From positions 7,648,001-7,712,000 of the forward strand of contig CBDCXR010000004.1 in the NCBI GenBank assembly GCA_965223845.1: 64,000 bases of DNA, read 5' to 3'. Origin of the DNA: Planctomycetota bacterium. Lineage in GTDB: Bacteria > Planctomycetota > UBA8108 > SXIK01. Made by a program: the position numbers and the translations under genes. The notes below the pieces were generated by a model. The model worked only from the letters and a program-made list of their open reading frames with translations, was not told where the DNA came from and made no database searches. Shown here piece after piece: positions 53,368 through 63,173 of this stretch (the stretch's first letter is position 1; the number at the start of each line of letters is the position of its first letter).

Positions 53368-54144
53368 TCAGACGCCGACGATGTTGTACCCGCAGTCGAC
53401 GTAGATCGTTTCGCCCGTGATCCCGCTCGAGAGCGGGCTGAGCAGGAACGCCGTCGCGTTCGCCACTTCGTCGACCTCGACGTTCCGCCGGAGGGGAGAG
53501 ACCGACGCGACGTGATCGAGGATATCGGTGAAGCCGGAGATCCCGCGTGCGGCGAGTGTGTTGATGGGGCCCGCGGAGATCGCATTCACGCGGATCTGCT
53601 TCTCACCGAGGTCGGCCGCGAGATAGCGAACAGACGCCTCGAGCGCGGCTTTCGCGACGCCCATGACGTTGTAATTTCGAACCGCTCGCGCGGCGCCCAG
53701 GTAGGTCATCGCGACGATGCTCCCGCCTTCCGACATGAGAGGAGCGGCCATGCGCGCAATGGCGGTGAGGGAATAGCTGCTCACGTCCTGGGCGAGGTGG
53801 TAGCCCTTGCGCGACGTGTTCACGAACGTCCCCTCGAGGTCGTTTCGGTCGGCGAACGCAACGGAGTGGACGACGAAGTCGAGTCGACCGAAGTCGGCAG
53901 CGAGCCGCTCGCCGAGTGCGGCGATGTCATCGTCATCGGTCACGTCGCAGGGATAGAGGGGCGTCGATCCGGGGAGCGTTTCGGCGAGACTTTCGACCTT
54001 CCCCTTCAGCTTATCGCCCAGGTAAGTGAGCGCGAGCTCGGCGCCGGCGTGCGCCGCCGCCTGCGTGATCGCCCACGCGATGCTGCGCTTGTTCGCGACT
54101 CCGAGGATGAGGCCCTTCTTCTCCGCCAGCATGTTCGTGGTCAT
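53368..54144 (-). CDS. fabI: Enoyl-ACP reductase FabI
   Basis: GVANKRSIAWAI, HSVAFA, YNVMGVAKAALE, VNAISAGPI.TLAA. Confidence 0.96.
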   Translation of the reverse strand: MTTNMLAEKKGLILGVANKRSIAWAITQAAAHAGAELALTYLGDKLKGKVESLAETLPGSTPLYPCDVTDDDDIAALGERLAADFGRLDFVVHSVAFADRNDLEGTFVNTSRKGYHLAQDVSSYSLTAIARMAAPLMSEGGSIVAMTYLGAARAVRNYNVMGVAKAALEASVRYLAADLGEKQIRVNAISAGPINTLAARGISGFTDILDHVASVSPLRRNVEVDEVANATAFLLSPLSSGITGETIYVDCGYNIVGV

Positions 54145-54331
54145 CCCGATTCGTCCTGCCGCTTCTCGCGCCTTCGCCAGTGCCGCGGAGCCGCGCTACG
54201 CCGTTCTCTCTCGCGTGCTCCGGAACGCGGGCGAATTGTACCCGAACAGCTGGGAGCGGTCGACGTCACCGAGCCGTCCGGCCCGGCGCGGTCGCCGTAC
54301 GGCGTGCGATCTCCGACGCCGGGGAATTCGC

Positions 54332-54360
54332 TTTACCGCGCTTGGGGCCCTCGTTATAAG
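54332..54360 (+). promoter_or_regulatory. Putative sigma70 promoter of the arg operon
   Basis: TTTACC-N17-TATAAG. Confidence 0.55.
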
Positions 54361-54498
54361 GGGCGGTTTCCCCCGAGGACGAGACGACTCGCGCCCACGC
54401 GGCCGATCGATCTCTCGAGGCGGGTGCGGCCACCCGCGGTTTCGAAGGTTTACCGTCCTCGGGCGCTCGCTCGGAATTCGGCGACGGAGCCGACCAAC

Positions 54499-54567
54499 AT
54501 GCATCCGACCGACCACTCGTTCCATCGTGGAAGACCCCGCCGGGGACGCGGCGGCCGCCGTCGCTAG
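54499..54567 (+). CDS. Putative Arg-rich leader peptide MHPTDHSFHRGRPRRGRGGRRR (22 aa)
   Basis: SD GGAG at 54486-54489, then ATG; 8 Arg in the last 13 codons; lies between the putative promoter and argB. Confidence 0.55.
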   Translation: MHPTDHSFHRGRPRRGRGGRRR

Positions 54568-54895
54568 GCCCCGGCTAACGACGTTTTCGAACGAGATGGT
54601 CCACTCGGACGCCGTCCGATTCTCCCCTGGCCGGCACTCTCGCTTTCTGACGGGCGAAGAAGGTCGCGGACCGGGAGGGAAGGACCAGCGAGGCGCAGCG
54701 GGTGATTCGCTGCGCGACCTCTCGCGACAAGCGAGAAGTAGAATCGCGGCCCGAGCCGCGCGACGTGACGTCCCCGTTCGTGGATCGTTCCGACCGCGAA
54801 GAGACGCACATCGGCGCCGGTGAGAGCCGCGACGCTCGAGGAAACGATCCGCCGATCGGTGACATCGGTGGGGCGGATCGCAAGCGAGGACGACG

Positions 54896-55891
54896 ATGAC
54901 CCCCGACGCTGATCTCAGTCTTCTCAAGCAGGCGCTTCCCTACATCAAGGAGTACCGCAACAAGACCTTCGTGATCAAATTCGGCGGCGAGGTCGTGTCC
55001 GATCCCGATCGACTCGACGCGCTCGCCGAGCAGATCGCGCTCCTCCACGAGCTCAACGTCCGTCTCGTGATCATTCATGGCGGCGGGCCTCAACTTTCGA
55101 ACTACGCCGAACGTCTCGGGATCGAGGCGAAGAAAGTAGGGGGGCGACGCGTCACCGACGACGGTCTTCTCGAGGTGGCGAAGATGGTCTTCGCCGGCGG
55201 GATCTCGACCGACATCCTCGCGGCGCTCCGGCGGCACGACACACCGGGGGTGGGCCTCTCGGGAGTCGACGGCGACCTCGTTCAGGCCGTGCGTCGACCT
55301 CCGCGACGAGTCTACGACGACACCGCGGGCGAGGAGCGCGAGGTCGACTTTCAGAACGTCGGCGACATCCAGTCCGTGCGTCCGGAAGTCCTGAGCGTTC
55401 TTCTCGAAAAGAGATTCGTCCCCGTCGTTGCCTCCCTCGGCTGCAGCGACGACGGGCGCGTGCTCAACATCAACGCGGACACGATCGCGGCGGAGATCGC
55501 TTCCGCCCTGGACGCCGAAAAACTCTTTCTCTTCTCGAACGTGAACGGAGTTCTCCGCGATGTTGCGGATCCGTCGAGTCGGCACTCGTATCTCCTCGTC
55601 GACACGGTTCGACGAATGCTCGAAACGCGCGAGATCTCCGGCGGGATGGGCCCGAAGCTCACTGCGGCGATCGCGGCCGTCGAGGGCGGAGTTCGCCGGG
55701 CGCACATCATCAACGGGCTCGTCGAGAACGCGCTTCTCCTCGAAGTGTTTACGGTCGAGGGCGCGGGAACCATGATCCTCGATGAGGAAGAGGCCGCGAT
55801 GTACGCGGCGCGCCGGAAGGGAGTTCTCAGCCGCGGGGAAGCCTCACGAGAAGAGGCGCCCCCGAAGGTCGCAAAAAAAGGCGAAGAGTAG
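54896..55891 (+). CDS. argB: N-acylglutamate kinase
   Basis: QALPYI, VIKFGG, HGGGPQ, RVTD, NINAD, GGMGPK, LLLEVFT.EG.GT. Confidence 0.95.
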   Translation: MTPDADLSLLKQALPYIKEYRNKTFVIKFGGEVVSDPDRLDALAEQIALLHELNVRLVIIHGGGPQLSNYAERLGIEAKKVGGRRVTDDGLLEVAKMVFAGGISTDILAALRRHDTPGVGLSGVDGDLVQAVRRPPRRVYDDTAGEEREVDFQNVGDIQSVRPEVLSVLLEKRFVPVVASLGCSDDGRVLNINADTIAAEIASALDAEKLFLFSNVNGVLRDVADPSSRHSYLLVDTVRRMLETREISGGMGPKLTAAIAAVEGGVRRAHIINGLVENALLLEVFTVEGAGTMILDEEEAAMYAARRKGVLSRGEASREEAPPKVAKKGEE

Positions 55892-55960
55892 AAGCAAAGG
55901 AAAACCTAGAGACCGGGAGACACCGAGTTCGGGTCCGGGATGACCTGGCGGGAGAGAACT

Positions 55961-57346
55961 ATGCGGAGTGATCGGTTCGGGGCGGAGCTGAACGAAGCGA
56001 TGGCGCGACTCAACGCGTCGATCGGATTCGACCATCGCCTCTACAACGAGGACATCGATGGTAGTCTCGCGTGGGCGGACGCCCTCCTCGATCGCGATCT
56101 GATCGACGGTGAGGAGCACCGCCGCATCTGCGACGGACTCGAGAAGGTCCGCGGCGAGATCGACGCGGGCAGCTTCGAGTTTTCGGTCGAGCACGAGGAC
56201 ATCCACATGAACGTGGAGTCCCGTTTGACGGCGCTCACCGGAGACGCGGGAGCAAAGCTCCACACCGGACGAAGCCGGAACGACCAAGTCGCGACGGATC
56301 TGAGGCTCTACTTGAAGCGTTCGGCGGTGACTGCGGCGCGCGCGCTCGCCGAGCTCGCCACGGAGCTCTCGGCGCTCGCGGAGCGGGAGATCGACGTCGT
56401 GATTCCGGCGTATACGCATCTTCAACGCGCTCAACCCGTCCTCTTTGCGCATCACGTTCTCGCGTACGCCGAGATGCTCATTCGCGATCGCGATCGCTTT
56501 CTCTGGGCGGCGAATCAAGCCGATTCCCTGCCTCTCGGGTCGGGAGCGTGCGCGGGGAATCAATTCGGCATCGACCGCGAGCTCCTCTCGGCCCGCCTCG
56601 GGTTTGCCCGGCTCACCCACAACTCCATGGACGCGGTGAGCGATCGCGATTTTGTCTGCGATTTTCTCCATGCGGCGTCGCTGCTCCTCGTCCATCTCTC
56701 GCGCTTCAGCGAGGACCTCATTCTCTGGTCGAGTGCGGAGTTCGGATTCGTCGTTCTCGACGACGCGGTGACGACCGGAAGCTCCATGCTGCCGCAGAAG
56801 AAGAATCCCGATGCGTGCGAGCTCGCCCGCGGAAAGTGCGGTCGCGTGTTCGGACATCTCGTTGGACTCCTGACGACGCTGAAGGGCTTGCCGCTCACGT
56901 ACAACAAGGACCTCCAGGAAGACAAAGAGGGAGTGTTCGACGCGATCGACACGATCGAGCTCCTTCTCCCCGTGTTTCGAGCGACGGTCGCGACGCTCGC
57001 GGTCCGCCGCGAGAACATCGCGGGGTCATTGAGTGGGGGGTTCCTCGATGCGATGGGGCTCGCCGACTACCTGACTCGGCGCGGCGTTCCGTTTCGCGAT
57101 GCCCACGGTGTCGTTGGGGCCGTCGTACGTCGAGCCGAAGCGGAAGGGAAGGAACTCTCCCAGCTCTCCCTCGAAGAGCTGAAGGAGATCCATCCCACCT
57201 TCGAGAGCGACGTCTTCGAGGCTCTCCGCCTCGAGAACCTCGTCGCAGACAAAGATGTCGTCGGGGGCACGGCCCCGGCGCGAGTGAGGCAGGAGATCGA
57301 GCGGGTGCGTTTGCTCGCCGGGGCGACCCCGCCGGACGAGGAGTGA
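55961..57346 (+). CDS. argH: Argininosuccinate lyase
   Basis: EDIHM, HTGRSRNDQ, YTHLQRAQP, TGSSMLPQKKNPD, YNKDLQEDK. Start may be 55940. Confidence 0.96.
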   Translation: MRSDRFGAELNEAMARLNASIGFDHRLYNEDIDGSLAWADALLDRDLIDGEEHRRICDGLEKVRGEIDAGSFEFSVEHEDIHMNVESRLTALTGDAGAKLHTGRSRNDQVATDLRLYLKRSAVTAARALAELATELSALAEREIDVVIPAYTHLQRAQPVLFAHHVLAYAEMLIRDRDRFLWAANQADSLPLGSGACAGNQFGIDRELLSARLGFARLTHNSMDAVSDRDFVCDFLHAASLLLVHLSRFSEDLILWSSAEFGFVVLDDAVTTGSSMLPQKKNPDACELARGKCGRVFGHLVGLLTTLKGLPLTYNKDLQEDKEGVFDAIDTIELLLPVFRATVATLAVRRENIAGSLSGGFLDAMGLADYLTRRGVPFRDAHGVVGAVVRRAEAEGKELSQLSLEELKEIHPTFESDVFEALRLENLVADKDVVGGTAPARVRQEIERVRLLAGATPPDEE

Positions 57347-57460
57347 CGGCCGTTCGGACGGCACGAACCGCGGCGAAGATCAACGAGTCCGCCGAAAGGC
57401 GGAGCGCAGGCGCGCACGGAGCACGGATTCGTGCGCGAAATGGAATCGTAGGAGCGAGAC

Positions 57461-58675
57461 GTGGCCGAGAAGAAGAAAGTCCTCCTGGCGTACTCGGGCG
57501 GACTCGATACGACGTACTGCATCATCTATCTGAAAGAGAAGGGCTACGACGTCCTGACGGTGACCGTCGACACGGGCGGCTTCACGGCGGAGGAGCTGCG
57601 CGGAATCGAAGAGCGCGCCGCCGCGCTCGGAGTCCTTAAGCACGAGACCATCGATGGGCGACAGCGCGTTTTCGACGACTACGTCAGCTACCTCATCAAA
57701 GGGAACGTGCTCCGCGGTTCCGTCTACCCGCTCGCTGTCGCGGCGGAGCGAGTCGTCCAGGCCGAGATCGTCGCCGAGATCGCTCGAGCTGAGGGCGCCG
57801 ATGCGATCGCGCACGGATCGACCGGAGCGGGAAACGATCAGGTCCGCTTCGACATCGCGTTTTCCGTGCTCGTGCCGAACCTTCCGGTCATCACTCCGGT
57901 GCGCGATGAGACGCTGAGTCGGGATGAGGAGTTCGACGCGCTCGAGCGCCACGGCATCGACATTCCGAAGACGCTGCGAACGTATTCGATCAACAGTGGT
58001 CTCTGGGGAGCTACGATCGGCGGAGGGGAGACGCATGATCCGTGGCAGGAGGTGCCGGACGCCGTCTTCGAGGAAGCGATCGACGCGCCTCGAGCAACCG
58101 CGACGGAGTACGTCGAGATCGAATTCGAGCACGGGGTGCCGGTCGGCCTGGACGGTCGTACGGTGCCGGCGGTCGACGTGATCGCTGCGCTCGGCGAACG
58201 ATGCCGGAGCCACCGCGCCGGGCTCGGAATCCACATCGGCGACACCGTTCTCGGCATCAAGGGACGCATCGCGTTCGAGGCCGGCGCGGCGCTCGTCCTG
58301 ATCACGGCGCACCGGGAGCTCGAGAAGATCACCACGACTGCATGGCAGCGCTTTTGGAAGGATCATTCGGCGGAGTTCTACGGGAAGATGCTTCACGAAG
58401 GGAACGCTTTCGATCCCGTTCTTCGCGATATCGAGGCGCTGATCGACAGCTCGCAGGAGCGGGTGAGCGGAACGGCGCGAATCCGGTTCGATGCCGGCCA
58501 GTTTCGTGTCGTGGGGGTGAAGAGCCCTCACGACATGATGCGGCAGGAGTCCGGAGTCTACGGCGAGAAGCCCACTCTGTGGACGGGCGCCGACGTGAGC
58601 GGCTTCAGTACCGTGACCGCGGTCTCTTCGCGGCTTCATCGCCAGGCGGGTGCGAGGGACGAAGGCGGCTCGTAA
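57461..58675 (+). CDS. argG: Argininosuccinate synthase
   Basis: LAYSGGLDT, HGSTGAGNDQVRF, YSIN.GLWG, GIKGR. Confidence 0.96.
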   Translation: MAEKKKVLLAYSGGLDTTYCIIYLKEKGYDVLTVTVDTGGFTAEELRGIEERAAALGVLKHETIDGRQRVFDDYVSYLIKGNVLRGSVYPLAVAAERVVQAEIVAEIARAEGADAIAHGSTGAGNDQVRFDIAFSVLVPNLPVITPVRDETLSRDEEFDALERHGIDIPKTLRTYSINSGLWGATIGGGETHDPWQEVPDAVFEEAIDAPRATATEYVEIEFEHGVPVGLDGRTVPAVDVIAALGERCRSHRAGLGIHIGDTVLGIKGRIAFEAGAALVLITAHRELEKITTTAWQRFWKDHSAEFYGKMLHEGNAFDPVLRDIEALIDSSQERVSGTARIRFDAGQFRVVGVKSPHDMMRQESGVYGEKPTLWTGADVSGFSTVTAVSSRLHRQAGARDEGGS

Positions 58676-59733
58676 TGGACCTACGCGTGCACAAGATCGC
58701 CTCGGTCGTTCACCGCCTCGGCTTCGAAAAGACCGTCGAAGTGACGGAATCGCTCGAGGTCGCAGCGGGGAATGCCGTCGTTGTCCGCGCGCTCCGTGAG
58801 AAGCGAGTGTACAGCGACCTCGAGCTCGACAGCGGACGCATGGCAAAGATCTACCGCGGCGACGTGTTCATCGGTGCACTCGGATGCCGGCGTGCTCTGC
58901 GAGGGTTTTGCGGCGATCTTCCCACGCGTCTCCGCGTCGGCGACACGCTTCAGCTCCTCAACCGCGGTGGCGTCGTCGGTCGAAGCGCGACCGAGCACAT
59001 GGACATCGGCTCCCCCGTGACCTGCGAGGTTCTGGGCATGCCGATTCGCGGCGGTCGCATCGCGAACGTCGCGGATTCTCGACTGCCGTCGACACCCGAA
59101 CGCCGTGACGTCGAGCTTCCGCCCGTCCTCGTCGTCACCGGGACGTGCATGGATTCGGGGAAGACACTTTTCTTGTCCGAGCTGATTCAGGAGCTGACGC
59201 GCGACGGTCTCGCGATCGCGGGCGGAAAGCTCACCGGAATCGCGTGCCAGCGAGATCTGCTCGCGATGGAAGACCACGGCGCGATGGCGACGGCGTCGTT
59301 TCTCGACGTCGGGCACACATCGACGGTGGATCTTTCGCCGGCGCGTCTCGTCGAGGCCGCGCGCGACATCGTGAGCTATCTCGCGAGCTTCGGCCCGGAT
59401 CTGATCGCCCTCGAGCTCGGGGACGGACTGCTCGGTGACTACGGCGGCCTCGAGCTCCTCCGGCACGAAGAGTTCCGCGATTGGGTCCGCATGCACGTTT
59501 TCTGCGCTTCGGATCCCGTCGGTGCGTGGGGCGGGAAGCGACTCCTCGCGGAGAGCGGAATCGAGATCGACCTCTTCTCCGGACCCTGTACCGACAACGA
59601 AGTGGGCAAGGAATCCCTCGAGCGGGAGTGGGGAATCCCCGCGATCAACGCCCACCGTCAGCCGGCGGAAGTCGCGCAGGTTGTTCGCCGCCATCTCGAA
59701 GCGGGCGGGAACGCGGATCCGGGCATCCAGTAA
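58675..59733 (+). CDS. DUF1611-like P-loop protein of unknown function inside the arg operon
   Basis: TAATG overlap with argG; ELDSGR, GALG.RRA, GTCMDSGKT, KLTG, DVGH.ST, ELGDG. Confidence 0.8.
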   Translation: MDLRVHKIASVVHRLGFEKTVEVTESLEVAAGNAVVVRALREKRVYSDLELDSGRMAKIYRGDVFIGALGCRRALRGFCGDLPTRLRVGDTLQLLNRGGVVGRSATEHMDIGSPVTCEVLGMPIRGGRIANVADSRLPSTPERRDVELPPVLVVTGTCMDSGKTLFLSELIQELTRDGLAIAGGKLTGIACQRDLLAMEDHGAMATASFLDVGHTSTVDLSPARLVEAARDIVSYLASFGPDLIALELGDGLLGDYGGLELLRHEEFRDWVRMHVFCASDPVGAWGGKRLLAESGIEIDLFSGPCTDNEVGKESLEREWGIPAINAHRQPAEVAQVVRRHLEAGGNADPGIQ

Positions 59734-59794
59734 GAGGCTTTCCACTAGCGCGTACGGTGCGACGGGACGAGCATTCACGAAGGACGAAGGCGAC

Positions 59795-60847
59795 ATGGCG
59801 AGCGAAGGCGGGGCGAGGAAATCGATCAAGGTCGGGGTTGCGGGCGCGTCCGGATACATCGGAGCGGAGCTCCTTCGCTATCTGGTGGGGCACCCGCAGG
59901 TGTCGATCGACTGGGCGACGGCCAACACGCACGCAGGGAAGTCCGTGGCCGACGTGCTGCCGAATCTTGTCGGGGTGCTCGATCTCGAACTCGAGACGCT
60001 CGAGGACGTCGAGTCTCGCGTGCCGGAGACGGATGTCGTGTTTACCGCGCTTCCGCACAATCACTCGCAGGATGTCATTCCACGGCTCGCGGCAGCGGCA
60101 CCGAATACGGTGTTCATCGATATGGGCGGAGACTTTCGCAGTCCCGACCCCGAGCGTTACCGATCGTTCTACGGTCGCGATCACGCGGCGCCCGATTGGC
60201 TCGAGCGTTTCGTCTACGGAGTGACCGAACATCGGCGCGACGCCCTCCGCCGGACGAAGCTCGTCGCGAATCCGGGCTGTTTTGCCACGGCGATGGGACT
60301 CGCGCTCGCGCCGCTCGCGCGGGGCGGGCGACTTCCCGCCGACGTTTACGTCGCTGCCATCACCGGGTCGTCCGGTGCGGGGAACAAGCCGCTCCAGACG
60401 ACGCATCACCCGGAGCGCGCCGCAAACGTCCGCGCGTACAAGCCACTCGTGCACCAGCATCTTCTGGAGGTCGAGTCGTTTCTCGCGACGTTCGGCGAGC
60501 GCGAGTTTCGTCTTCACTTCGTGCCGCAAGGCGGTCCCTACGTCCGCGGGATCTTCGCCACGATCTTCACTCCCGGACTGAATCGCGACGAGCTCGAAAG
60601 GATCTACTCCGACGCCTATGCCGACGAGTCGTTCGTCTCCGTGGTGAGCGGTTCCCCCGAGGTTCGGTGGATCCAGGGTTCGCCCCGAGCGTTTCTCGGC
60701 GTCGCCGGCGACGCCGGGCGCGGTGTAGTTTTCGCGGTACTCGACAACCTCGGAAAGGGGGCGGCCGGGCAGGCGATTCAGAACATGAATTGTATTTTCG
60801 GTTTGCCGGAGACCACGGGCTTGGTGGTTCCCGCGGGTTGGGTTTAG
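59795..60847 (+). CDS. argC: N-acyl-glutamyl-phosphate reductase
   Basis: GASGYIGAEL, ALPH, DFR, ANPGCF, GSSGAG, H.H, DNLGKGAAGQA.QN.N. Confidence 0.95.
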   Translation: MASEGGARKSIKVGVAGASGYIGAELLRYLVGHPQVSIDWATANTHAGKSVADVLPNLVGVLDLELETLEDVESRVPETDVVFTALPHNHSQDVIPRLAAAAPNTVFIDMGGDFRSPDPERYRSFYGRDHAAPDWLERFVYGVTEHRRDALRRTKLVANPGCFATAMGLALAPLARGGRLPADVYVAAITGSSGAGNKPLQTTHHPERAANVRAYKPLVHQHLLEVESFLATFGEREFRLHFVPQGGPYVRGIFATIFTPGLNRDELERIYSDAYADESFVSVVSGSPEVRWIQGSPRAFLGVAGDAGRGVVFAVLDNLGKGAAGQAIQNMNCIFGLPETTGLVVPAGWV

Positions 60848-60915
60848 GTGATGGGGCGGCGACGGGGGAGCGGAAGTTCGTCGGGAATGTGGAACGTGGA
60901 ACGGGTGTGAGCGAT

Positions 60916-62097
60916 ATGAACAGCTTTGAACAAGAAGATCAGTTTGTCCTTCCGACGTACAGCAAGCTTCCGATGGCTCTCGTCCGCGGCCGTGGATCGT
61001 GGGTCGAAGACCAGGCGGGCGAGCGCTACCTCGACCTCTACGGCGGTCATGCCGTCACGCTCCTCGGCCATTCGCACCCGAAGTGGGTTGCGGCGCTCAA
61101 GGAACAGCTCGACGCGCTCGACTTCTATTCGAACGTCAGCTACCACCCGCTTCGTGCGGATGCGGCGCGACGACTCGTCGAGCACAGCTATCCGTCGATG
61201 GCCTCGGCGTACTTCTGCAATTCCGGTGCGGAGGCCGTCGAGACAGCGCTCAAGATCGCGCGCGGAGCGACGGGGCGCGAACGGGTCATCGCTCTCGAGC
61301 GCGATTTTCACGGGCGCACCGCCGGTGCGCTCGGAGTAGCGGGGAACCCGAAGCTCCGCGATCAGTTTCCCGCGTCTCTCGGGTCGTTCACCGACTTCGT
61401 TCCGCTCGGCGACCTCGACGCCCTGCGCGCGATCGATCCAGCAGCCGTCGCGGCGCTCATCCTCGAGCCGATTCAGAGCCTCGCCGGGGTGTATCTCGCG
61501 CCGCCCGAGTATTACGTCGAGCTCCGCCGGTACTGTTCGGAACACGGCATACAGCTCATCTTCGACGAAGTGCAGACCGGGAGCGGCCGCACCGGCGAGT
61601 GGTACGTCGGGACGCACTGGGACGTCGAGCCGGATCTCGTGACGACCGCCAAAGGCGTTGGTGGAGGCTTTCCCGTCGGCGTGGTCCTCGTGAACCGATC
61701 GCTGACGGACGGCGTTTCCGTCGGCGATCACGGGAGCACGTTCGGCGGAGGTCCGCTGGCGGTCGCCGCGGTGAGCGCGACGTACCGAATCCTCGAAGAA
61801 GAGGGGCTCGTCTCGGCGGTCGCGAAGCGCGGAGCAGAGGTGCGTCGCCGGCTCGAAGCGCTCGTGGGAGGACCCGTCGTGCGCGAGGTTCGCGGGCTCG
61901 GCTACCTCCTCGGTGTCGAGTGCACGGTGCCGGCAGCGGACGTCCATCGCCATCTTCTCGCCGCGAAGATTCTCGTCGGAAAATCCGGCGATCCGAACAC
62001 GCTCCGTCTTCTCCCTCCGCTCACCGTGACCGACGAGGAGTGGGATCTCTTCTTCTCCGCCCTCGAGAGTTTCGAGCCGGCCGCCGCCACCGCATGA
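60916..62097 (+). CDS. argD: N-acylornithine aminotransferase (class III PLP)
   Basis: YLDLYGGHAV, NSGAEA, FHGRT, EPIQ, FDEVQTG.GRTG, AKG, HGSTFGG. Confidence 0.92.
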   Translation: MNSFEQEDQFVLPTYSKLPMALVRGRGSWVEDQAGERYLDLYGGHAVTLLGHSHPKWVAALKEQLDALDFYSNVSYHPLRADAARRLVEHSYPSMASAYFCNSGAEAVETALKIARGATGRERVIALERDFHGRTAGALGVAGNPKLRDQFPASLGSFTDFVPLGDLDALRAIDPAAVAALILEPIQSLAGVYLAPPEYYVELRRYCSEHGIQLIFDEVQTGSGRTGEWYVGTHWDVEPDLVTTAKGVGGGFPVGVVLVNRSLTDGVSVGDHGSTFGGGPLAVAAVSATYRILEEEGLVSAVAKRGAEVRRRLEALVGGPVVREVRGLGYLLGVECTVPAADVHRHLLAAKILVGKSGDPNTLRLLPPLTVTDEEWDLFFSALESFEPAAATA

Positions 62098-62180
62098 TCG
62101 GTTCGTGGCGCAGCGTTTCGTGGGCAGTTCCGCCTGCGCCGTCGTCGTAGTATACTCCGGGTTTTGGCCAGGGCCGTCTG

Positions 62181-63173
62181 ATGCGACATTTCTATAGTCT
62201 GAACGAGTTTAGCCCGGGCGACATCGACGAGCTCCTCGATCGAGCGGTCTACCACAAGGAGAACCGCTACGTCGACGTGCTGCGTCGGCGGCAGATCGCC
62301 CTCCTTTTCCTCGATCCGTCGCTTCGCACGCGCTGCTCCTTCGAGGTCGCGCTCCGCGAGCTCGGCGCCGGAGTGAGCAATCTCGAGAGTCAGTCGCTCT
62401 GGACGCTCGAGACCGAGTTCGGAAAGCGGATGGACGGCGATCGAACCGAACACGTCCGCGAGGCGATCGGCGTTCTCTCTCGCTATTTTGACGGACTCGG
62501 CCTCCGCTGCTTCGCGCGCGGGGAGAATCGCGACGACGATCTCGTCGACCGGATGTTCAGCTCGTTCATGGAGCACGCGAAGATTCCGGTCTTCAATATG
62601 GAGTCGGCCGTTTACCACCCGTGCCAGGCGATGGCGGATTTGCTCACGATCCGCGAGTTGCTCGACTCTCTGAACGGCCGAAAGATCAGCATCGTCTGGG
62701 CGACGCACCCGCGACCACTTCCGCACGCGGTGGCGAACTCGATCGTGCTCGCGACGGCGCTCACTGGAATGGACGTGACGCTCGCGCATCCGGAAGGCTT
62801 CGAGCTCCACGACGGGATCATGACTCTCGCGCGTAGTTTCGCGGAAAAATCGGGAGCCAACCTGCGCGTCACGCACGATCTGTCCGACGGTGTTCGCGAA
62901 ACGGAAGTCGTGTACGCGAAGGCGTGGGGCGGTCTCCTCCGCTACGACGACCCCGCCGCCGAGGCGGCGCTCCGGGAGAAGCATCGCGACTGGATCGTCG
63001 ACAAGCCGCTCCTCGACCTCACGCGACGCGCGTACTTCATGCACTGTCTCCCGGTGCGGCGGAACGTCGTCGTCTCGGACGAGGTGCTCGACTCGCAGCA
63101 GTCGGTCGTCCTTCGCCAGGCCGAAAACCGACTCCACGCCCAGAAAGCGATTCTCGAGTGGATGTTCTCTTGA
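62181..63173 (+). CDS. argF: N-acyl-ornithine carbamoyltransferase (ArgF', AOTCase/SOTCase group)
   Basis: SLRT, extended 80s loop W.LE....MDG...EH, HPCQ, Pro-rich HPRPLP.AV.NS, HCLPVRRN. Confidence 0.92.
   Translation: MRHFYSLNEFSPGDIDELLDRAVYHKENRYVDVLRRRQIALLFLDPSLRTRCSFEVALRELGAGVSNLESQSLWTLETEFGKRMDGDRTEHVREAIGVLSRYFDGLGLRCFARGENRDDDLVDRMFSSFMEHAKIPVFNMESAVYHPCQAMADLLTIRELLDSLNGRKISIVWATHPRPLPHAVANSIVLATALTGMDVTLAHPEGFELHDGIMTLARSFAEKSGANLRVTHDLSDGVRETEVVYAKAWGGLLRYDDPAAEAALREKHRDWIVDKPLLDLTRRAYFMHCLPVRRNVVVSDEVLDSQQSVVLRQAENRLHAQKAILEWMFS

Follow-up and report, generated by a model that had tools for sequence, protein, structure and literature searches.

An arginine-rich leader ORF before a planctomycete arginine biosynthesis operon as a candidate sensor for ribosome-mediated attenuation

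The window, by which we mean the whole 64-kb stretch of Planctomycetota DNA analysed here, carries an arginine biosynthesis operon in the order argB-argH-argG-orf-argC-argD-argF', where argF' is N-acetylornithine carbamoyltransferase (Table 1). Profile matches for argH, argG (TIGR00032), argC and argF' are above their cut-offs, and that for the argD-like gene is below. The arg leader sits between argB and a divergent fabI-like gene, and a divergent fabI lies beside argB in 13 of 14 related loci as well, the remaining one (L009) being truncated. A fabI promoter-like site is present at 54263-54235 on the minus strand, and a -10-like motif is similarly positioned in several relatives. The putative promoter of the arg operon is absent from the calls of a consensus promoter scan, and its -10 box lacks T6; a similarly positioned TTN..TATA site occurs in 12 of the 14 relatives, as counted with a permissive pattern and no null distribution.

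Table 1. Features of the arg leader and operon in the window
Feature	Position	Strand	Basis or remark
fabI-like enoyl-ACP reductase, synteny marker outside the element	53368..54144	-	NCBIfam FabI models, below cut-offs
Putative sigma-70 promoter, TTTACC-17-TATAAG	54332..54360	+	sequence; 535 nt before argB
GGAG, putative ribosome-binding site of the leader ORF	54486..54489	+	sequence; 9 nt before ATG
Arg-rich leader ORF, 22 codons, TAG stop	54499..54567	+	sequence; shuffles; counterparts in L001, L006-L014
Leader-ORF hairpin domain: 54511-54522 with 54589-54601, enclosing 54539-54545 with 54569-54575	54511..54601	+	folding
C-rich stretch, weak candidate Rho loading site	54599..54648	+	C minus G = 11 in 50 nt; mostly paired in model
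Stable 9-bp hairpin, no U-tract	54693..54715	+	folding; ribosome position without effect in model
Stable hairpin, no U-tract, just 5' of the argB ribosome-binding site (GAGG 54886-54889)	54845..54880	+	folding
argB, acetylglutamate kinase, first gene of the operon	54896..55891	+	TIGR00761, above cut-off
Rest of operon: argH, argG, ORF 58675-59733, argC, argD-like, argF'	55940..63173	+	profile matches

A first-pass annotation of this DNA had drawn attention to the short leader ORF, and the letters, ORF, Shine-Dalgarno (SD) sequence, promoter-like site and stems that it named all lie where it had placed them. Arginine occupies positions 10, 12, 14, 15, 17, 20, 21 and 22, the last three codons before the TAG stop all being Arg, and the eight Arg codons among the final 13 are two CGT, one AGA, four CGC and one CGG. 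This is the only one of the 282 small ATG ORFs of the window with eight Arg in its last 13 codons; five others have seven. Dinucleotide shuffling of the 535-nt leader equalled its Arg richness in 10 of 3000 trials (0.0033), and 3 of 238 window tiles of 535 nt matched it. Taken alone, these chance statistics are suggestive and no more. Two other ORFs lie in the leader on the plus strand. One, at 54596-54823, starts with ATG and has 75 codons, 19 of them Arg; it has no clear SD and was unseen in relatives. The other, a 65-codon ORF at 54702-54899, starts with GTG in the loop of the 9-bp hairpin, is preceded at 9 nt by GAGG, and shares four bases (ATGA) with the start of argB; it has no counterpart in L001 and may be due to chance.

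A genome scan with an alignment of 38 of 120 listed ArgB proteins returned at least 598 stretches, at least 566 of them encoding relatives, and the best 80 loci were kept. Among these 80, 14 loci (L001-L014) start with argB-argH and have an ArgB that is 59-76% identical. Thirteen are titled Planctomycetota or a class thereof, and L009 groups inside the L008 cluster on the ArgB tree; the closest ArgB relatives, among the matches listed, are Planctomycetota wherever the source names the organism. The other 66 of the best 80 loci are mostly from Acidobacteriota and have a different gene order. An ORF was counted as Arg-rich if it began with ATG, was 8-45 codons long, contained 7 or more Arg within 13 codons and had an Arg content of 35% or more, a threshold fixed after inspection of the data. 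Eleven of the 15 fabI-argB intergenic regions pass it: those of the window, L001 and L006-L014. None of the controls does, neither the 15 antisense strands nor the 31 regions (394-600 nt) upstream of argR in the sister operons. A comparison of relatives' leaders was what the first-pass annotation had suggested as a check, with lack of conservation among its grounds for refutation, and the Arg-rich ORF does recur, in 10 of 14 loci against none of 46 control regions.

The shuffle frequencies by locus are 0 of 3000 for L001, 0.0013 for L006, 0.0017 for L007 and at most 0.001 for L008-L014. Seven of the ten positive relatives, L008-L014, are near-copies of one another (89% column identity), and the positives amount to four independent lineages. 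They are spread over all three Planctomycetota subclades of the ArgB tree, the joins between subclades being moderately supported, and the window and L001 are sisters on it (support 100/98). Even between these two, alignment of the leaders gave no convincing conserved block; judged from the sequences, the leader ORF is conserved in kind, not in sequence. The four relatives below threshold are L002 (3 Arg in 17 codons), L005 (4 Arg in 39 codons), L003 and L004. The leader ORF of L003 starts with TTG behind a well-formed AGGAG, carries 3 Arg within 6 codons, and runs through the terminator described below; it spans L003:9816-9995 and ends 5 nt before argB. In L004 a terminator-like hairpin is kept (L004:9899-10000; weak tail, by eye) with no leader ORF. 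Both leaders resemble attenuators that are decaying or have been altered, or else they reflect errors of assembly.

The first-pass annotation had itself cautioned that GC-rich DNA yields Arg-rich short ORFs by chance. Codon usage argues against this explanation. In five leaders AGA makes up 11 of 55 Arg codons, versus 3 of 310 in argB plus argH of the same five loci (p 9e-8), and GC content is therefore not the explanation. Of the 21 codons of the L001 ORF, 11 encode Arg, and CGA, CGT or AGA account for 10 of these. Among L008-L014, 12 of the 31 codons vary, six silently and six with a change of residue, and all 12 Arg positions remain Arg, two of them through AGA/AGG exchange. Start, stop and frame are fixed, and the ORF is free of indels, which its flanks have. 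Because Arg and frame stay constant in this group while other residues change, these sequences suggest that it is the Arg count that matters, and not the peptide sequence.

In all 12 loci folded (L002, L003, L005-L014), a hairpin followed by a U-tract lies about 50-150 nt before argB. We modelled the ribosome by masking the RNA to 9 nt beyond the A-site codon and folding the remainder to equilibrium. In 9 of the 12 loci (L006-L014) the terminator is rare in these equilibrium foldings with the ribosome at early Arg codons and near 1.0 with the ribosome at the stop; the response is partial in L003 and L005, and the terminator is fixed in L002. In a second model, applied to one to three representatives per lineage, the transcript ends before the 3' arm of the terminator. 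Here leader-ORF sequence sequesters the 5' arm (P about 0.5-1.0) in 8 of 8 loci tested, and the arm is released 0-5 codons beyond the main Arg cluster in all eight. When the upstream part was shuffled, the number of shuffles per 200 that matched the observed antitermination was 0 for L006, 0 for L007, 4 for L005 and 8 for L012; we regard this control as strong for the first two and moderate for L005 and L012, and it is weak for L008 (28/200), L003 (32/200) and L002 (141/200).

The models differ in detail among lineages. At equilibrium the L006 terminator forms from codon 15, ahead of the RRRRR run, and with truncated transcripts the switch shifts to codons 20-22. The L007 model is noisy, with the 5' arm re-sequestered at codons 26-28. 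The main Arg cluster is mid-ORF in L006 and L008-L014 and shortly before the ORF end in L007. Five of the 12 Arg codons of L008-L014 come after the switch point, some of them within the pairing strand, and may have a structural role instead of one in sensing. No two-sided compensatory change was found in the 25 pairs of the L008-L014 stems, a comparison of only seven sequences that are 89% alike. On these models most relatives very probably use a classical intrinsic terminator as output, with leader-ORF sequence tying up its 5' arm until the ribosome clears the Arg cluster. As modelled, the layout matches classical attenuators, and its sign is the one that a biosynthetic operon calls for.

We also looked for other regulators. 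An ArgR profile was built from 23 ArgR proteins of sister loci, and the five of these that were checked were all confirmed by Pfam. The first-pass annotation had proposed a check for argR, and this profile finds none, either across the 64 kb of the window or in the 2-21 kb of each of L001-L014. The same profile matches 31 of the 66 other loci among the best 80 of at least 566. These Blastocatellia/Acidobacteriota sister operons have the same gene content, including argF' and a counterpart of ORF 58675-59733. However, in this same sample (the best 80 of at least 566), argR is found in 31 of the 66 sister loci with an Arg-rich leader ORF in none of the 31, and the Planctomycetota loci are the reverse. 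Apparent Arg-rich ORFs upstream of argG in Acidobacteriota were rejected as counterparts: ArgR coding sequence fills that stretch in 23 loci, and none pass upstream of argR. A search of the promoter with an ARG-box pattern was uninformative, as the pattern missed 23 of 23 argR promoters too. No T-box, riboswitch or other curated RNA family was matched: Rfam gave only two sub-threshold chance matches in window 53500-55500, and none in L002, L006, L007 or L009. None of eight leader peptides matches Pfam or NCBIfam at E up to 1, a search whose power is low with such short queries.

The leader of the window itself differs from those of most relatives. As the first-pass annotation had said, there is no U-tract terminator between the ORF and argB (54568-54895), and the L001 leader has no intrinsic terminator either. 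Because terminators are present in all three subclades, the simplest reading of the sequences would be that the terminator was lost on the window/L001 branch. A crude scan gave a terminator density of 1.6 per 10 kb in the window's genome versus 0.5-3.4 in the relatives, which does not set it apart. A CGTGGG repeat in L001 was considered as a relic antiterminator/terminator and rejected, since the second hairpin never forms in folding. The distance from ORF stop to argB is 328 nt in the window and 503 nt in L001, both longer leaders than those of the relatives, and both ORFs finish with three or four Arg codons directly before the stop.

The four stems described for the window are complementary, the first with a 1-nt bulge, and a modelled ribosome melts the leader-ORF hairpin domain stepwise, its inner stem having a probability of 1.00 through codon 10 and 0.00 from codon 12. 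Downstream of this domain, equilibrium folding revealed no ribosome-responsive structure. The supposed competition between the hairpin at 54693-54715 and a pairing of 54661-54668 with 54713-54720 does not show up in folding: across the 24 ribosome states the hairpin keeps P = 1.00, and the probability of the rival pairing stays at 0.000. The accessibility of the argB SD-to-start region is 0.57 without a ribosome and with the ribosome from R14 to the stop, and 0.35-0.59 at earlier codons; in L001 it is 0.59-0.67. The candidate Rho loading site is not significant, its C excess being reached by 27.6% of equal-length window stretches, and its accessibility barely changes with the ribosome. L001 has no C-rich stretch close to its ORF. 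The leader as a whole is little more stable than its shuffles (z -1.75, -2.24), and equilibrium folding is a blunt tool for a leader of 68% GC, so that a kinetic switch may still be at work. Upstream of the leader ORF, 54454-54461 (+) is a perfect 8-nt complement of the argB SD region (54885-54892); the folded models instead show it in local pairing close to the 5' end.

Of the scheme put forward in the first-pass annotation, the arginine-sensing leader peptide is supported by its recurrence, by the lack of argR nearby and by the terminator and antiterminator of the relatives; the RNA switch sketched for the window is not, and the Rho-dependent or translational output that it proposed stays conjectural. 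We consider that the ORF in the window probably functions as an arginine sensor, whatever the output. As to the complete scheme, we lean towards the view that the ORF serves as arginine sensor in a ribosome-mediated attenuator of the arg operon, with no argR alongside and with Rho providing the output in the window and L001. We infer translation of the ORF, its response to arginine and the part played by Rho. When charged tRNA-Arg is scarce, the ribosome would stall at the Arg codons and the operon would be expressed; when it is plentiful, the ribosome would complete the ORF and expression would be cut. In the window and L001, a ribosome stalled at the last Arg codons would remain on the nascent RNA and exclude Rho, and its release would bare 330-500 untranslated nucleotides to Rho. 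Planctomycetota generally have Rho. Our preference for it comes from the leader, which is long and untranslated and has its cognate codons at the stop, an arrangement that fits a ribosome protecting the RNA by remaining on it; for the window taken by itself, we regard Rho-dependent termination as evenly poised.

A mycobacterial system urges caution here. The poly-Cys leader ORFs of mycobacteria were first guessed to be Rho-dependent (PMC1262725) and were later shown to act translationally (10.1101/834739). Given this history, the Rho guess for the window can be wrong. A translational output read from the same Arg-codon sensor, in which a stalled ribosome frees the argB ribosome-binding site or the coupled ORF at 54702-54899, as in the mycobacterial poly-Cys leaders, strikes us as rather unlikely but is the strongest competitor. 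Cognate-codon runs near the stop that act, without a terminator, on a downstream SD are its precedent (10.1101/834739, PMC1262725). Helices of 8-10 bp, with G-U allowed, are possible from 54582-54589, 54638-54645 or 54702-54711 to the argB SD region, and leader codons 15-17 (54541-54548) resemble that region and can pair with 54582-54589. However, such helices are abundant in GC-rich leaders (24 from the L001 ORF alone), the modelled SD accessibility stays at 0.57 from R14 to the stop, and the coupled ORF is without a counterpart in L001.

We think it improbable that the ORF is a relic of an ancestral attenuator, or a chance ORF, and that the operon is constitutive or under a protein encoded elsewhere. 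The terminator is gone in the window branch and folding shows no switch; 11 of the 238 window tiles meet the looser threshold (at least 7 Arg in 13 codons, at least 35% Arg), and half of the window's Arg codons are CGC; and the next closest loci, L002-L004, have a weak leader ORF or none. But L001, equally terminator-less and with a leader that is not convincingly alignable, still has its 11 Arg codons and its preference for CGA, CGT and AGA, which decay would not keep, and the window ORF retains ATG, SD and stop. That the nascent peptide arrests the ribosome in response to free arginine or ornithine within the exit tunnel (as in the fungal arginine attenuator peptide or SpeFL), and not to tRNA charging, is least probable of all: CGN-NNN-AGA (R-x-R) does recur in the window, L001, L002, L005, L006 and L008-L014, but length (17-39 aa) and non-Arg residues differ freely among lineages, 6 of 30 codons change residue even among the near-copies L008-L014, the eight peptides match no Pfam or NCBIfam family, and the register of the switch modelled in relatives would give antitermination on stalling, the sign for arginine shortage.

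Returning to the attenuator with an Arg-codon sensor, we find it reasonable to suppose, if with some reserve, that this Planctomycetota lineage runs its whole arg operon by leader-peptide attenuation instead of ArgR, the output having been rewired from a terminator (L006-L014) to a terminator-free form (window, L001) and the Arg run having moved from mid-ORF to the stop. The mechanism would be a variant of known attenuation, with its strongest support coming from the relatives and with the window as the terminator-free form.

Classical ribosome-mediated attenuators include trpL, hisL, pheL, thrL and the ilv/leu leaders. They are described as transcription attenuators in PMC1262725 and PMC2965389, and with them the planctomycete leaders share a short cognate-codon-rich ORF before a cognate biosynthetic operon. 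The terminator, U-tract and antiterminator strand within the ORF are shared by L006-L014 only. What differs here is the amino acid, arginine, and the phylum, and the window, with no intrinsic terminator, is not a full member of the class. In the Salmonella speF leader (orf34/SpeFL; PMC6386406), Arg codons of a leader ORF also sense arginine in a long leader, and we count its Rho-dependent and structural outputs as a further likeness. However, that leader controls ornithine decarboxylase, has two consecutive Arg codons in a conserved core, and shows no sequence-family match to the planctomycete leader peptides. The mycobacterial poly-Cys ORFs (10.1101/834739, PMC1262725) resemble the window and L001 in their cognate run at the stop, the lack of an intrinsic terminator and the GC-rich host, but they are leaderless and act on a downstream SD, whereas the window ORF has its own SD and folding shows no SD switch.

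Other small upstream ORFs are more distant. S. aureus rbfL (PMC13009471) senses arginine via AGA/AGG, but overlaps and represses rbf, a biofilm regulator. E. coli argL (10.1101/511675) is a small ORF before an arginine biosynthesis gene, argF, but overlaps the argF start region and represses it, and no arginine response is reported for it in the text available. The fungal arginine attenuator peptide (arg-2/CPA1; PMC11550727) is encoded by an upstream ORF controlling an arginine-biosynthesis gene, but it is eukaryotic and stalls at high arginine via a conserved peptide, that is, with the opposite sign. Predicted premature terminators before a few Proteobacteria and Bacillus arg genes are given in PMC2965389, in the seen parts of which there is no attenuator annotation for them and no match in Pirellula. 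In our literature search no bacterial operon for arginine biosynthesis turned up with a leader-peptide attenuator, in Planctomycetota or elsewhere; full-text coverage was partial, and such a leader may already have been predicted.

Control by a repressor, ArgR, is what textbooks describe for arginine biosynthesis in bacteria, T-boxes being the exception at the RNA level. T-box control is also described in PMC1262725. If our reading is true, an arginine attenuator in the style of his and phe would extend classical attenuation to a further amino acid and a further phylum. Near-identical operons under ArgR in Acidobacteriota and under a leader peptide in Planctomycetota would form a natural pair, and the window and L001 would together show a change of attenuator output with the sensor kept.

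Two observations lie outside this argument. The predicted N-terminal extensions of three proteins (P0034, P0047 and P0063) hold short G/V-F-F stretches resembling a translated GGG-plus-U-tract tail, hinting at further relatives with a terminator. The product of ORF 58675-59733 (+, 352 aa), within the arg operon, has no Pfam or NCBIfam match, and a PDB sequence search with it gave a single non-significant match. Its Atlas look-alikes, at 0.98-0.99, include DUF1611-domain clusters. Because the window's arg operon contains no argA, argJ or argE, we note this ORF, as a lead only, as a candidate for the missing acetylation/deacetylation step. Counterparts of it persist within the arg operons of Planctomycetota, Acidobacteriota and Gemmatimonadota, with L008 and L010-L014 lacking one.
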